Shown here piece after piece: positions 21,155 through 24,948 of a DNA stretch of 32,000 nucleotides. How positions within the stretch are numbered: the stretch's first letter is position 1; each line of letters opens with the position of its first letter. The stretch spans positions 1 to 32,000 of the forward strand of contig DGGR01000038.1 in assembly GCA_002392285.1 (NCBI GenBank). Reading direction: 5' to 3'. The translations under genes and the position numbers were made by a program. This stretch comes from Verrucomicrobia bacterium UBA3869. Lineage in GTDB: Bacteria > Verrucomicrobiota > Verrucomicrobiia > Opitutales > UBA9783. Below the pieces are notes generated by a model. The model searched no databases and had not been told where the DNA came from. It worked only from the letters and a program-made list of their open reading frames with translations.

Positions 21155-21183
21155 TTGAGACTCAGGGGAAATTCATTCATAAT
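21155..21183 (+). promoter_or_regulatory. Candidate sigma-70-type promoter for the three-gene orphan operon
   Basis: TTGAGA (21155-21160), a 17-nt spacer, then CATAAT (21178-21183). Each hexamer matches consensus 5/6. The -10 element lies ~75 nt upstream of the ATG at 21258. Confidence 0.45.
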
Positions 21184-21257
21184 CATTGATTTAAGGGTAA
21201 AAAAGCGCAATTTGAAGGGTTTTTGGGTATTTATGGCACAATGTATGCTATTCATAA

Positions 21258-21650
21258 ATGCGAATGAAAACGAATGAGATTCAACCGGAACAGATGTTGC
21301 ACCAGATAGATGAATTGAAAGAGCGTTTGGATCGTTTGCAGAATGTTTTTCATCAATTGAAATTAGATGCGTTCGATGAAAAATATTTAACAAAGGACTA
21401 TATCGATGCGTTCATAGATTTTTTGCAAAAAACTGCTCCCAACGAAAAGTATATGCTGAATGAATTAAAGTGTATGGCTTCGTTGTTGGACCAGAATAAG
21501 CAGCCGGTCGGCGTGGTTCCGGAAGGATTGAATGGTAAACAGATTCTATTAGCAGGCCATCAGGATCCGATTATGTCGGATCCTGAGAAGGCTCATAGTC
21601 AATGGACTTCTCGGTTGAAGTGCCGGATGCCCATGAAACGAATGATCTAA
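21258..21650 (+). CDS. Small hypothetical protein (130 aa) with a predicted helical, acidic N-terminal two-thirds. Chaperone-sized first gene of the operon.
   Basis: Heptad-like segment EQMLHQIDELKERLDRLQNVFHQLKL. The stop at 21648-21650 is followed 1 nt later by the next ATG. No family is recognised. An alternative start is the ATG at 21264. Confidence 0.65.
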   Translation: MRMKTNEIQPEQMLHQIDELKERLDRLQNVFHQLKLDAFDEKYLTKDYIDAFIDFLQKTAPNEKYMLNELKCMASLLDQNKQPVGVVPEGLNGKQILLAGHQDPIMSDPEKAHSQWTSRLKCRMPMKRMI

Positions 21651-21651
21651 C

Positions 21652-23232
21652 ATGGCTATTCCTCCAATTGGTATAAATCCTAATGCGGGTGTGGTTAGGG
21701 CCGTTATTAATACAAATTTAACGGAAGTTATTCAGAAATATACTGATTTAAGTTCTGAATATAAGGTCATTCAAGATAATCTGCTGAAGCAATTAAATGA
21801 TATTTTTAATACACACATCCAATACGATGCGCAGCGGCATATTTCTTTTGCCGGCGACTTTGTAAAAAATATTTGCGTCGATAGCGAAGAGGCCAACAGA
21901 GCTTATAAGTTTTACGGCCTAAAGGTCGTGAATCAATTTAACCGCCTAGGTGATTACATCCTCCAAACAGATGACTTATTGGATCAATTGAGAGCCTTGC
22001 CTGAGGATACCCCAACCGATACTGGGATAGCACATCCTAAAATTGTTGACCTGGAAATAATCGAGAAGGCTAGCAATGAGGTTATAAAAGACTTTAGCCT
22101 GCGCTGCATTTACGATTATGATGCCATGGTTTGGATGCCCTATCAGGATGATTATCGTAAGGGGGTGCATGAGCAAATTGGTCCCAAAAACGATTACCCA
22201 ACCTATGAGGATTTACGTCACGTATCGGTGGAGAAGAAACGTCATCAAATTATTCAAGAACCGATAGAGATGATGCGGGAGGTGAACCTGCTGGATCGGT
22301 TGCGTGCTATCCGTGTTTATTACCAGATGGATAACGGGAAAAGTGATGCGGTTTACCCGAATGATGCAAGGAAGGGTTATCCTGGAATCAAGGAAGAGGT
22401 GGATGCTTTTCGATGGGAAATTGAAAAGTTTTATTGGGGATATATATCAGACCGCGATGGAGCTGAATCCACGGTTCTAAAATTATTAGAAACGAAAGCA
22501 TTGGCAATCCAATCTAATTTGTCGGATCTTAAAATACAGCTAGATACGTTTTCTTTTTATTCAGACTTTTTAAACCGTGCACTAGACGTACTTCATTCTT
22601 CCACTAAAAATCAAATCATGCCATATGGGGTTCGTTTCGCATTAACGTATTTGTGCGGTGGCCCAATGTATAGCTTGTTTAAAGATCAGGGGGTGCCATG
22701 CCTGGTTATTAAAAGCATTGTTAATGATACCTTTAGTCTAATTAAAGCTGATAAAGAAGGGATGAATTTTTTCTTTGGAGATGATGGAACTACCAAAAAT
22801 TATAGAGGTAACGCTGCTTGTGATGCCCTATGGATGAACAATCGATGGGTTATGAACATAGCAGGTGCTGTAGTCCCCAATGCTTATTGGTATTCGAAAT
22901 CACGTAATGCAGATGGAATCTTTAACAAAGAAACAAAAAACTTGGTTGATCCCTTTGTTTTACCCAAAAAAATTCAGTGTGAATTGGTAACACCTGAAAG
23001 TGTAAAAGCTTATCAAGATTTCAATACAACAGACAAAGTAACCGATGATGTTATTAAGTCGTGTCAGGAAGCTTTGCAGTCGAAGGTAAATTTTTGCACC
23101 CAATCGGTTGAGGCATTACATACCGATATCGATTATGTTTATCAAAAAATGACGATGTTTGATACCGCCAATAATACCTTTAATACTTGGATGACTGGCG
23201 TATGTGAACGCATTGTACAACGTATAAGTTAA
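21652..23232 (+). CDS. Hypothetical 526-aa protein, paralogue A of a tandem pair (function unknown)
   Basis: Long ORF collinear with the next gene. Shared blocks (A/B) are NLLDRLRAIRVYYQ/NLLSRLEFIHFYYK, KFYWGYISDRDGA/LFYIGYLVDKFGA, ALAIQSNLSDL/VRALRSNLELL, FALTYLCGGPMYSLFKDQG/LALNFLLSNNMYCLFEDKSG, NFFFGDDGTTKN/RFFLGEDGTANGN and DPFVLPKKIQCELV/SPFKLPPKLTCTNV. No TM segment or signal peptide. Confidence 0.9.
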   Translation: MAIPPIGINPNAGVVRAVINTNLTEVIQKYTDLSSEYKVIQDNLLKQLNDIFNTHIQYDAQRHISFAGDFVKNICVDSEEANRAYKFYGLKVVNQFNRLGDYILQTDDLLDQLRALPEDTPTDTGIAHPKIVDLEIIEKASNEVIKDFSLRCIYDYDAMVWMPYQDDYRKGVHEQIGPKNDYPTYEDLRHVSVEKKRHQIIQEPIEMMREVNLLDRLRAIRVYYQMDNGKSDAVYPNDARKGYPGIKEEVDAFRWEIEKFYWGYISDRDGAESTVLKLLETKALAIQSNLSDLKIQLDTFSFYSDFLNRALDVLHSSTKNQIMPYGVRFALTYLCGGPMYSLFKDQGVPCLVIKSIVNDTFSLIKADKEGMNFFFGDDGTTKNYRGNAACDALWMNNRWVMNIAGAVVPNAYWYSKSRNADGIFNKETKNLVDPFVLPKKIQCELVTPESVKAYQDFNTTDKVTDDVIKSCQEALQSKVNFCTQSVEALHTDIDYVYQKMTMFDTANNTFNTWMTGVCERIVQRIS

Positions 23233-23238
23233 TATAAT

Positions 23239-24948
23239 ATGGCCATTAATATTAATGAAATTAATCCTGTTTTGCATCCGCAGATTGATGCGCCCCAGCC
23301 CAATAATCCTATTGTCCCTCATAATGATATTATTGACGACTATGATGCTAAGTTTAAAATCAATGGGACCTTTGATCAGGAGGAGAAGAAAATATTCGTT
23401 CGTTTAAATGCGATTGTTGAAGAGAATTATGATATTAACAACCTGGACAAATTGATTGTTAATTCTCGTATTATGCCGGGTGCTCCTAAAGAGGACGATA
23501 AAAATTTTATCGATCATTACTGTCGTGAAGGATATAACGCGTATCTGTTTTACGTTAAATGGATTATTGGGGTCATTCACACAATCCATAATACGATTAA
23601 AACTGCTCGAGGTATCGTTGAGGAGCTTAAGCAGATGCGTAATGCTGGAGCTACGACTGCACAGCTTCTTGTAAAGGTACCTGAAAAATTTGATTCCTTA
23701 AAGTGGTATGCAGAAACGGCCATGAAGGATGCCCTCGATGAGTTTAGGCAATATCTGCAGTACAATAACGACACAAAGCAATGGGATTTGATGACAGATG
23801 AGGTTGATGCTAAACAGCTAAGAAAGTACAGCGGGTATGCGAGTTTGCAGGCATTGCGTGAAACAAGGGTTCCATATACGGATACTATGCGTCAATATCC
23901 CTCCTGGAAATTACCGATTTTTCGTTCGTTGAATTTACTGAGCCGTTTGGAGTTTATTCATTTTTATTATAAAAGAATCATGGTGGATAATGACCCTGAT
24001 TACCTAGTGTTTCCTACTGATCCTGCCACCGGGTATCCTTGCGTACCTGATAATGGAAAGGGTGAGGGTACTTCGTCTGAGCATCAGGGGACGATGGAGC
24101 TGTTTTATATTGGTTACTTGGTCGACAAATTTGGTGCGTTAAATGCGCCTGCAACCTTTTTAGATGTTAAAGTCCGCGCATTGAGGTCGAATTTGGAATT
24201 ATTGTCGCATTATATCAGTGCTTTAAATGTCTATTTGGACTTTATTGCGCATGCAACTGATATGGTTAATGCTTCTCAGAACGGTGCAACTGATAAGGAT
24301 AAACATCGTTTGGCGGATGCAGCTTATTTAGCATTAAACTTTTTATTATCCAACAATATGTATTGCTTGTTTGAAGATAAATCAGGCAAGGCACTTTTGG
24401 TTTTAGAAAATCCAGATGATCTTGGAAAATTCATGTTGATTACAACAGATATAACTGGAAAACGGTTTTTTTTGGGGGAAGATGGAACAGCAAATGGGAA
24501 CGTAGGCGATGGAGGTATTGGGTTAAGGATTGACGAGAATAACAAGCCTGCTGCCTATTCAGGCTATGCCTTAGTTTTTGAACAAACTCCTGCCAATTAT
24601 TATACCGCTGGAAGTATGGTTAATGGGCATTATGATTCGAAAAAAGCTAAAATTGCTAGTCCTTTTAAACTCCCACCAAAATTGACTTGTACCAATGTAT
24701 TAAAGAAAAGTGTTAAAGAATGGAATTCTTGGCACGATGCTAGCAAGATTACAGGTGATGTTACATCGTCCTGGATTAGCGCATTAAACAACAAAAGTGA
24801 ATTCATTAATACTTCTATTCAAAATACGAATACGGAAATCACGGATTCCCAAACGACGATTAATAATTATGATTCGGAAGCGTCCAATATACGTAAAAAA
24901 GCTGAAGAAATATACGGTAAGGTAATCGACAAATTCCCTGCTCGGTAA
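23239..24948 (+). CDS. Hypothetical 569-aa protein, paralogue B of the tandem pair (function unknown)
   Basis: See paralogue A. It starts MAININEINPVLHP (A starts MAIPPIGINPNAG). It ends in an Asn/Ser/Thr-rich helix followed by EEIYGKVIDKFPAR. It begins 6 nt after the stop of A. Confidence 0.9.
   Translation: MAININEINPVLHPQIDAPQPNNPIVPHNDIIDDYDAKFKINGTFDQEEKKIFVRLNAIVEENYDINNLDKLIVNSRIMPGAPKEDDKNFIDHYCREGYNAYLFYVKWIIGVIHTIHNTIKTARGIVEELKQMRNAGATTAQLLVKVPEKFDSLKWYAETAMKDALDEFRQYLQYNNDTKQWDLMTDEVDAKQLRKYSGYASLQALRETRVPYTDTMRQYPSWKLPIFRSLNLLSRLEFIHFYYKRIMVDNDPDYLVFPTDPATGYPCVPDNGKGEGTSSEHQGTMELFYIGYLVDKFGALNAPATFLDVKVRALRSNLELLSHYISALNVYLDFIAHATDMVNASQNGATDKDKHRLADAAYLALNFLLSNNMYCLFEDKSGKALLVLENPDDLGKFMLITTDITGKRFFLGEDGTANGNVGDGGIGLRIDENNKPAAYSGYALVFEQTPANYYTAGSMVNGHYDSKKAKIASPFKLPPKLTCTNVLKKSVKEWNSWHDASKITGDVTSSWISALNNKSEFINTSIQNTNTEITDSQTTINNYDSEASNIRKKAEEIYGKVIDKFPAR

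Follow-up and report, generated by a model that had tools for sequence, protein, structure and literature searches.

The stretch of DNA analyzed here, hereafter called the window, comprises the first 32,000 nucleotides (nt) of contig DGGR01000038.1 from Verrucomicrobia bacterium UBA3869 (assembly GCA_002392285.1; Opitutales, UBA9783). Between nifJ, which encodes a pyruvate:ferredoxin oxidoreductase (PFOR), and ruvB, it carries three close-packed and co-oriented genes (Table 1), wherein a small protein is encoded first and is followed by two larger hydrophilic proteins. An initial annotation made from the letters of the window had described this arrangement, and both its coordinates and the gaps of 1 nt between genes 1 and 2 and of 6 nt between genes 2 and 3 are borne out. 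The three genes are real, because they lie in a block that is syntenic with a metagenome-assembled genome (MAG) from horse feces, exhibit ratios of nonsynonymous to synonymous substitution rates (dN/dS) of 0.22, 0.38, and 0.41, respectively, and recur in the same arrangement in about 20 loci of other genomes. We assign a probability of roughly one half to the reading that this operon encodes a small chaperone together with two exported, distal (tip or adaptor-like) components of a type III secretion system.

As the initial annotation had proposed, the second and third genes are old paralogues (BLASTP E value 2e-35; 25% identity over 452 collinear amino acids). AlphaFold2 models with a mean predicted local distance difference test (pLDDT) score of 77.5 for gene 2 and 71.2 for gene 3 present the same architecture for both proteins. 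In each, about 20 disordered N-terminal residues precede long N-proximal helices, after which come a small element of beta structure, a conserved central hairpin of helices, a domain rich in beta structure, and a C-terminal helix of ~60 residues. This order agrees with the earlier description of a polar, disordered N-terminus, a central helical hairpin, a globular insert, and a terminal helix. The same description had noted no transmembrane segment or recognizable enzymatic motif in the paralogues, and indeed a Kyte–Doolittle scan detects no hydrophobic segment of the transmembrane type in genes 1 to 3. Searches of Pfam and NCBIfam yield nothing above threshold.

The hairpin of gene 2 falls in one of the most conserved stretches of the protein family (FYxGYLxDRDG...ALNVYLDFIxRALDxLNASQ), wherein E258, F260, G263, Y264, G270, K282, Y303, and F306 are invariant columns. 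The N-termini are also distinctive. Family-wide, the first 24 residues are enriched in S, T, P, I, V, and N, and charged residues make up 12.5% of this segment versus the usual 25.2%. Low-charge N-termini with such a composition are typical of type III export signals. The composition of these termini fits a signal of this kind, and we regard it as soft evidence for export.

The operon had been called an orphan, a view that the distribution of the family overturns. A profile search of 1.84 billion representative proteins recovered 93 clusters, which carry no taxon labels and 68 of which fall below 1e-30. A genome scan found 24 loci, all from gut-derived Opitutales, Puniceicoccales, or unclassified Verrucomicrobia MAGs, whose source guts are those of horse, ruminants (rumen), humans (including Hadza), and termites. 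Word-indexed searches found few relatives, and a metagenome scan with the subfamily that we call B yielded three loci. In a neighbor-joining tree the members form three broad, old groups (A1, A2, and B), some of which are not clean clades, and all three subfamilies have the same termini and core. Gene 2 belongs to A1 and gene 3 to A2. The small gene is followed by a family member in about 20 loci, usually by two, with minimal gaps or overlapping genes; the A1 member is always first and the A2 member always second. In termite-gut genomes only one member follows the small gene. Nine loci keep the position next to nifJ, and in most loci the neighbors of this A module are otherwise housekeeping genes, for instance yidC, glgB, secA, ruvX, truB, greA, recD2, priA, and ftsA.

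Family members range from 526 to 1765 amino acids (aa), with several paralogues per genome. The expanded members include proteins of 858, 1038, and 1765 aa (Table 1). In the 858-aa protein, Ala/Glu/Lys-rich repeats of the coiled-coil type (for example, AAEENLSNKEAxLTAAE) are inserted after the N-terminal region, and mapped matches establish that both this and the 1765-aa member keep the conserved core and the C-terminal helix. Representatives of 131 to 191 aa that hold the C-terminal region only were considered as small subunits, and this idea was rejected since they look like gene fragments.

The initial annotation had also proposed an association with type III secretion. The window itself holds no translocon or apparatus gene, and the proteins have no significant sequence or fold match to LcrV, IpaD/SipD, EspA, needle subunits, FlgK/FlgL, or LcrG. 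What sustains the association is the gene context of subfamily B in relatives. Directly 3′ of B, a 181- to 192-aa tetratricopeptide repeat (TPR) protein is encoded in every B locus whose downstream flank was read, and a 376- to 514-aa protein comes after it wherever the contig continued; usually a STAS protein is next. The TPR protein is a class II chaperone of the SycD/LcrH family (TIGR02552, E 2e-25 to 6e-29, 89–100 bits, just under the equivalog cut-off). A tblastn search of plasmids with this protein matched 281 records, chiefly from Shigella (103), Yersinia (92), and Aeromonas (20), and all annotated ones among the matches listed are SycD/LcrH/SicA chaperone genes. The larger protein, which contains two to three central hydrophobic segments, belongs to the YopB/SseC/EspD translocator family. 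In locus L024 it matches Pfam SseC over the full profile with 40.2 bits (cut-off 30.2), the L050 protein is a strong SseC match as well, and the aligned set matches YopB/AopB at an hhalign probability of 95.5% (E 1.4e-8).

The A and B modules are also found together. In L024 and L021 they are adjacent and divergent, separated by a gene for a Lipase_3 protein, and in termite-gut MAGs the two share a contig at a distance of ~8 kb. A roe-deer rumen MAG has both the nifJ-linked A module and B (L010 and L049). These arrangements support a genomic tie between the family and type III secretion. In locus L050, which lies among housekeeping genes, those for a CesT-family chaperone and an IpgD/SopB-family protein come directly before B, and those for the TPR chaperone, the SseC-family protein, and a 75-aa protein that is STAS-like by eye, with no family match on record, come after it. 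The IpgD/SopB-family protein has 573 aa and the catalytic motif CKSGKDRTG at C470. Members of the IpgD/SopB family are injected phosphoinositide phosphatases, and by its gene content L050 looks like a eukaryote-directed effector locus in a contig from gut Verrucomicrobiota.

As a separate observation, the Lipase_3-domain protein (500–554 aa) is a conserved divergent neighbor of the small-gene/paralogue module in five loci (Table 1), and its gene heads the operon of B, LcrH-like chaperone, and SseC-like translocator in L024 and L021. This protein may be a secreted lipase.

In 21 loci, BLAST at the level of open reading frames (ORFs) places a gene 1 homologue of 116 to 140 aa immediately before a family member. 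The alignment of these homologues has 10 invariant columns, the last residue among them. The N-terminal blocks are conserved and helix-like by the appearance of the sequence, and a conserved basic tail (...LKCRMPMKRMI) forms the C-terminus. No Pfam or NCBIfam model matches gene 1, including those for class I chaperones of the CesT/SycE type, and its profile is without a PDB match. We compared genes 1 to 3 by hhalign with 20 type III and flagellar reference proteins, namely E. coli FlgK, FlgL, FlgE, FlgD, and FlgN and 15 proteins of Yersinia or Aeromonas (LcrG/V/H, YopB/D/N, YscF/P/X/Y/E/G/O, LcrR, and SctI). The best reference for gene 1 is LcrG, at a non-significant P of 0.025 to 0.085 over 49 to 57 columns, and the real score is reached by 5 to 8 of 150 column shuffles. 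When read by eye, a basic C-terminal tail ending in R-x(1,2)-[IM]-I is common to the gene 1 homologues and to LcrG/AcrG. The hhalign comparison with E. coli FlgN yielded no match (probability 0.2%). Likewise, neither gene 1 nor the C-terminal tails, one of which (VIDKFP) had been likened to the ILQKFP end of needle subunits, has a Pfam match to SctF/YscF (hhalign against YscF, E 0.47–0.52). We regard gene 1 as a candidate for a dedicated chaperone or regulator of the paralogues.

For the family, the reference with the highest score is LcrV, through its C-terminal coiled-coil helix (P about 0.03–0.05 over 32 columns, non-significant), and 2 of 120 column shuffles reach the real score. Both similarities, to LcrV and to LcrG, are a lead that is consistent with gene order and are not to be taken as homology. 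Membership in established families was sought more broadly. No Pfam or NCBIfam match to the LcrV/PcrV family was found at E values up to 1, none to IpaD/SipD/BipD in Pfam, and none to EspA/SseB in Pfam at E up to 1 or in the PDB profile search, which returned no relevant match for the family profile. Pfam Flagellin_N/C, Flg_bb_rod, and Flg_bbr_C do not match either, and hhalign probabilities for E. coli FlgK, FlgL, and FlgE are at most 0.4%. The initial annotation had also likened the two paralogues to needle-tip and filament proteins by fold. The models do contain long helices, and yet LcrV, PcrV, IpaD, SipD, BipD, EspA, and SseB are absent among the 50 matches listed by Foldseek against the PDB. 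Both lists are headed by flagellins, FlgL, and FlgK, with non-significant values (E 0.1–1, probability at most 0.75, template modelling score [TM-score] by target no higher than about 0.44).

Gene order was compared as well. In relatives, the family as a whole presents two partial orders, with the small gene (a putative chaperone) before A1 and A2, and B before the class II chaperone and the translocator; the window has the small gene and the two paralogues only. The known counterpart is the LcrG-LcrV-LcrH-YopB-YopD series of Yersinia (pcrGVH-popBD in Pseudomonas and acrGVH-aopBD in Aeromonas). In both cases a small gene lies directly upstream of that for a hydrophilic protein with a long C-terminal helix, and B in relatives holds the position of LcrV in lcrGVH-yopBD, with genes for an LcrH/SycD-family chaperone and a YopB/SseC-family translocator next in line. 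The C-terminal helix of the family also bears a weak collinear resemblance to the alpha-12 helix of LcrV (NTAIDTIN versus NSAIEALN), as does gene 1 to LcrG. In contrast, the family proteins are about twice the size of LcrV, carry a different and larger insert, and lack significant sequence or fold similarity to it. Moreover, there are three paralogous subfamilies rather than one tip protein, the module is split over separate loci, and a STAS protein rather than a YopD-like minor translocator is encoded beside the YopB-like gene.

Other systems exhibit comparable arrangements. In SseB-SscA-SseC of Salmonella pathogenicity island 2 and in EspA-EspD-EspB of the locus of enterocyte effacement of enteropathogenic E. 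coli, a hydrophilic exported protein that polymerizes through coiled coils is encoded directly before a class II chaperone and an SseC/EspD translocator. The full-profile SseC match in L024 is in line with this arrangement, whereas EspA and SseB have ~190 aa and no large insert. FlgK, FlgL, and flagellin share with the family a disordered N-terminus, terminal helices, and an inserted domain, and together with FlgN they form a paralogue trio with a small upstream partner gene; unlike them, the family has an extra conserved central helical hairpin, a coupling to injectisome-type translocon genes, and no sequence match. The chlamydial translocator loci (scc2-CT577-copB-copD, with CT584 as proposed tip) are also found in the Planctomycetes–Verrucomicrobia–Chlamydiae (PVC) superphylum and in eukaryote-associated bacteria. 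Secretion genes scattered among housekeeping genes are the rule in chlamydiae, as in the loci described here. The difference lies in the host, which is an Opitutales bacterium, and every named genome match is a Verrucomicrobiota MAG.

We also compared evolutionary rates by using the MAG from horse feces, which is labelled Opitutales and carries the whole syntenic block including the operon. Genes 2 and 3 evolve fastest in this block, with 77 to 78% identity and the highest dN/dS values (0.38 and 0.41), whereas 10 flanking housekeeping genes are 91 to 99% identical with dN/dS of 0.04 to 0.16. Gene 1 is 97% identical to its orthologue. Its synonymous substitution rate of 0.064 is unusually low when compared with that of all neighbors (0.19–0.63), which hints at nucleotide-level constraint or at a patch of recent recombination.

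The best-supported reading of these data is that genes 1 to 3 are a lineage-specific set that does the work of LcrG and LcrV (or of SseB/EspA) with a larger scaffold of another kind, and that genes 2 and 3 are not redundant with each other. On this reading, gene 1 would attach in the cytoplasm to the long amphipathic helices of gene 2, gene 3, or both, with the 1-nt gap to gene 2 providing tight coupling, and would prevent self-association and/or time export, much as LcrG/PcrG do for LcrV/PcrV. The products of genes 2 and 3 would be exported by means of their disordered, low-charge N-termini. At the distal end of a secretion filament that could be needle- or hook-like, they would then come together, probably as a hetero-oligomer. 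As a tip or adaptor, they would serve as a platform for insertion of the YopB/SseC-like translocator into a eukaryotic membrane, likely that of a gut protist or host cell. An apparatus would then be present in the organism from which the window derives, and B, the LcrH-like chaperone, and the translocator would be expected elsewhere in its genome, as in relatives.

Several results weigh against this interpretation. Genes for an apparatus, a chaperone, or a translocator are found neither in the 32-kb window nor in the extra flank that could be reached. None of the three proteins has a Pfam or NCBIfam family above threshold or a PDB sequence match, all comparisons with the 20 references are non-significant, and the best Foldseek E values against the PDB for both models are 0.1 to 0.2, with none at or below 0.001. 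The models themselves are of moderate confidence (predicted template modelling score 0.56–0.58). A1 and A2 are tied to secretion by their paralogy with B and nearness to it, and not by their own neighbors, which are housekeeping genes. Finally, a published analysis of UBA9783 that includes the MAG bearing L024 reports that flagellar machinery is missing and leaves type III secretion unmentioned (PMC12306168), and therefore both modules may persist in one lineage or more that has no recognized apparatus.

Some of these points also bear on a reading wherein the operon is unrelated to type III secretion and encodes a lineage-specific cytosolic or envelope structural module, such as a coiled-coil scaffold, with B recruited separately. 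The housekeeping neighbors that surround the A module throughout, the lack of apparatus genes in the window and reachable flank in a family reported without flagellar genes (PMC12306168), and the lack of homology to any secretion component would fit such a module, which we consider unlikely, if still worth taking seriously. It accounts poorly for the A and B modules being adjacent or close in several genomes, for the termini and core that are common to all three subfamilies, and for the N-terminal composition and rapid evolution, both of which fit exported proteins. The housekeeping setting is also what chlamydial secretion genes display. Where B lies, just ahead of the genes for the LcrH-like chaperone and the translocator, middle substrates and not effectors are encoded, which argues against a different proposal, namely that genes 2 and 3 encode effectors translocated into a eukaryotic partner, with gene 1 as their private chaperone, and are not machine parts. 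Gene 1 matches no model of the CesT/SycE type, whereas the L050 CesT protein beside the IpgD-like gene is recognized; the three subfamilies and their gene order are kept across most sampled lineages; and the conserved N- and C-terminal helices resemble those of polymerizing axial proteins. We thus hold it to be quite improbable that these proteins are effectors, even with their fast evolution, their secretion-signal-like N-termini, the several paralogues per genome with lengths made plastic by coiled-coil insertions, and the Lipase_3 protein and IpgD-like effector as neighbors, all of which would suit that role.

A third possibility is that the family consists of highly diverged flagellar axial proteins of the FlgK/FlgL/flagellin type that serve motility, with gene 1 as an FlgN-like chaperone. 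The small gene with its two paralogues resembles flgN-flgK-flgL, flagellins, FlgL, and FlgK top both Foldseek lists, and in some relatives B follows fliO in a flagellar-type operon (see below). All Foldseek matches nonetheless fall short of significance (E 0.1 or higher; TM-score by target no more than ~0.44), Pfam Flagellin and Flg_bb_rod models do not match, and the hhalign comparisons with E. coli FlgK, FlgL, FlgE, FlgD, and FlgN are empty. Given also that LcrH and YopB homologues of the injectisome type always accompany B and that the family persists in UBA9783, which is reported to be without flagellar machinery (PMC12306168), a role in motility appears very improbable.

The connection of B to flagellar genes is found in one clade (L029, L046 to L048, L051 and L052, and L053 and L054), wherein the unit of B, LcrH-like chaperone, YopB-like translocator, and STAS protein starts 2 nt after fliO. 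It thus follows a co-oriented operon of fliF, fliG, fliH, fliI, fliJ, two unknown genes, flgD, a 354-aa flgE-like gene, fliL, fliM, fliN, and fliO (Table 1). The genes fliPQR and flhBA are not next after this unit. Within the clade, identities are 86 to 98% for FliI and 70 to 84% for FliG, but 37 to 47% for B and 27 to 35% for the translocator. B and the translocator diverge far more than FliI, and therefore the distal components evolve far faster than the core. The ATPase of the clade scores 364 to 374 bits against YscN versus 334 to 340 bits against E. coli FliI, a comparison too thin to interpret. Injectisome-specific apparatus genes (secretin, needle, SctD, and SctW) are found in none of the loci within the ~20 kb covered for each, and the apparatus genes found, all of them in relatives, are of the flagellar type only.

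These observations raise the possibility, which we put forward as a doubtful one, that gut- and protist-associated Opitutales use a flagellar-type type III machine as the base of a contact-dependent injection device, with A1, A2, and B as a flagellin-like or hook-associated-protein-like adaptor between hook and translocon. The operon in the window may then encode two of three axial tip components. A device of this kind, if it exists, would represent either an intermediate that has survived or a second, independent path by which a flagellum became an injectisome. A flagellar-type operon fused with translocon genes in one clade bears directly on the origin of injectisomes from flagella.

The initial annotation had entertained a chlamydia-like host, which is rejected since all genome matches are to Opitutales, Puniceicoccales, or unclassified Verrucomicrobia MAGs; the organism is a rumen or hindgut member of the Opitutales (Verrucomicrobiota). 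At least five samples or assemblies have contigs with the exact gene 3 sequence, among them MAG GCA_003521725.1 and run SRR873608. The families LL51 and UBA9783, which are Opitutales with reduced genomes, are putative endosymbionts of termite-gut flagellates and ciliates (PMC11257099) and are predicted to be exclusively symbiotic (10.1101/2025.05.29.656868). Reduced-genome gut Opitutales have been interpreted as scavengers (PMC12306168). The genes in the window for pyruvate phosphate dikinase, PFOR, two Trp/Tyr permeases, and ndk fit the auxotrophic, reduced-genome gut Opitutales of that study.

Type III systems of the nonflagellar kind are known from Verrucomicrobia, the evolution of tip and translocon proteins is known to be too fast for tracing, and the tip component has not been settled in chlamydiae or in the PVC superphylum as a whole (PMC3459982). 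In the searchable literature we found neither the present family described nor any account of type III secretion for these lineages of gut Opitutales. Tip and translocator parts are the least conserved and least understood of type III systems, so a three-paralogue family with this role, if our reading is correct, would fill a gap for Verrucomicrobiota. Gut Opitutales with reduced genomes would then be equipped to inject proteins into eukaryotic cells rather than live as scavengers (PMC12306168). With an IpgD/SopB-like phosphoinositide phosphatase among the linked genes, an injection lifestyle would fit the view of related families as protist endosymbionts (PMC11257099).

Table 1. Coordinates of the operon, of its predicted features, and of other loci mentioned in the text. 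Plain numbers are window positions; numbers after an L label are positions within that locus.
Feature	Position	Strand	Remarks
Gene 1	21258..21650	+	130 aa; from the ORF list
Gene 2	21652..23232	+	526 aa, hydrophilic; subfamily A1, first paralogue after the small gene
Gene 3	23239..24948	+	569 aa, hydrophilic; subfamily A2, second paralogue
Gene 2, N-terminal ~20 residues, MAIPPIGINPNAGVVRAVIN	21652..21711	+	Predicted disordered, pLDDT <50 for residues 1–20; candidate secretion signal
Gene 2, central helical hairpin, residues 251–315, contains SNLSDLKIQLDTFSFYSDFLNRALDVL	22402..22596	+	Predicted helices 251–269 and 271–315 (AlphaFold2)
Gene 2, C-terminal 60-residue helix, residues 465–524	23044..23223	+	Predicted (AlphaFold2); conserved in all three subfamilies
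Gene 3, C-terminal 59-residue helix, residues 506–564	24754..24930	+	Predicted (AlphaFold2); followed by tail ...VIDKFPAR
Promoter-like site TTGAGA-17-CATAAT, upstream of gene 1	21155..21183	+	10/12 consensus matches; candidate only
nifJ (PFOR), upstream neighbor of the operon	17531–21100	-	ORF
ruvB, downstream neighbor of the operon	25027–26037	+	ORF
516-aa ORF	7300–8850		
74-aa ORF, MSLEINTNIGTN...	16544–16768		Between sulfate permease gene and radC
Trp/Tyr-permease paralogues	26341–27462; 28082–29218		Flank ndk
Gene for 150-aa protein directly upstream of csrA	L035:20783–21419		Same contig, downstream of the window
Flagellar-type operon with B unit	L029:82–14274; L046:1–14428; L051:1–14028; L053:1–14122		
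L050 gene cluster with CesT and IpgD/SopB families	L050:6697–13124		
Lipase_3 genes	L013:7739–9403; L014:3402–5054; L016:2856–4436; L024:6117–7619; L021:7353–8861		
Expanded family members (858, 1038, and 1765 aa)	L004:10001–17877, P0014, P0031; L045:2632–7778		

The promoter proposed upstream of gene 1 is present as a sequence match. Such sites are no commoner in the region than in shuffled sequence (13 found versus 13.9 expected), and thus the match is not evidence by itself. The nifJ ORF as called mechanically begins with TTG and has 1189 aa, whereas gene calls in the same species and in relatives have 1176 aa. The true start is probably 39 nt downstream, and therefore the intergenic region before gene 1 would be correspondingly longer.

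Beyond the window, the contig ends just upstream, and downstream it continues with an MFS (major facilitator superfamily) gene and genes for a glucosaminidase and a 150-aa protein, followed by csrA and a gene for a transporter of the sodium:dicarboxylate symporter (SDF) family. The 150-aa protein is encoded in the usual position of FliW; it has no family or PDB match and no detectable similarity to FliW.

The 74-aa ORF between the sulfate permease gene and radC had been linked to the operon by the character of its N-terminus. In the loci compared, its sole match is the syntenic counterpart in the MAG from horse feces (no direct comparison with genes 1 to 3 was made), and the proposed link is not sustained. 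Public assemblies annotate the ORF as a gene, and it is 88% identical at the amino acid level to that counterpart, with a dN/dS of 0.22. A 516-aa ORF elsewhere in the window is of low GC content (0.35–0.38) and has no Pfam match. It exhibits weak similarity (E 3e-8) to proteins of 508 to 653 aa that are encoded a few kb from the A module in the rumen MAG loci L008 and L010.

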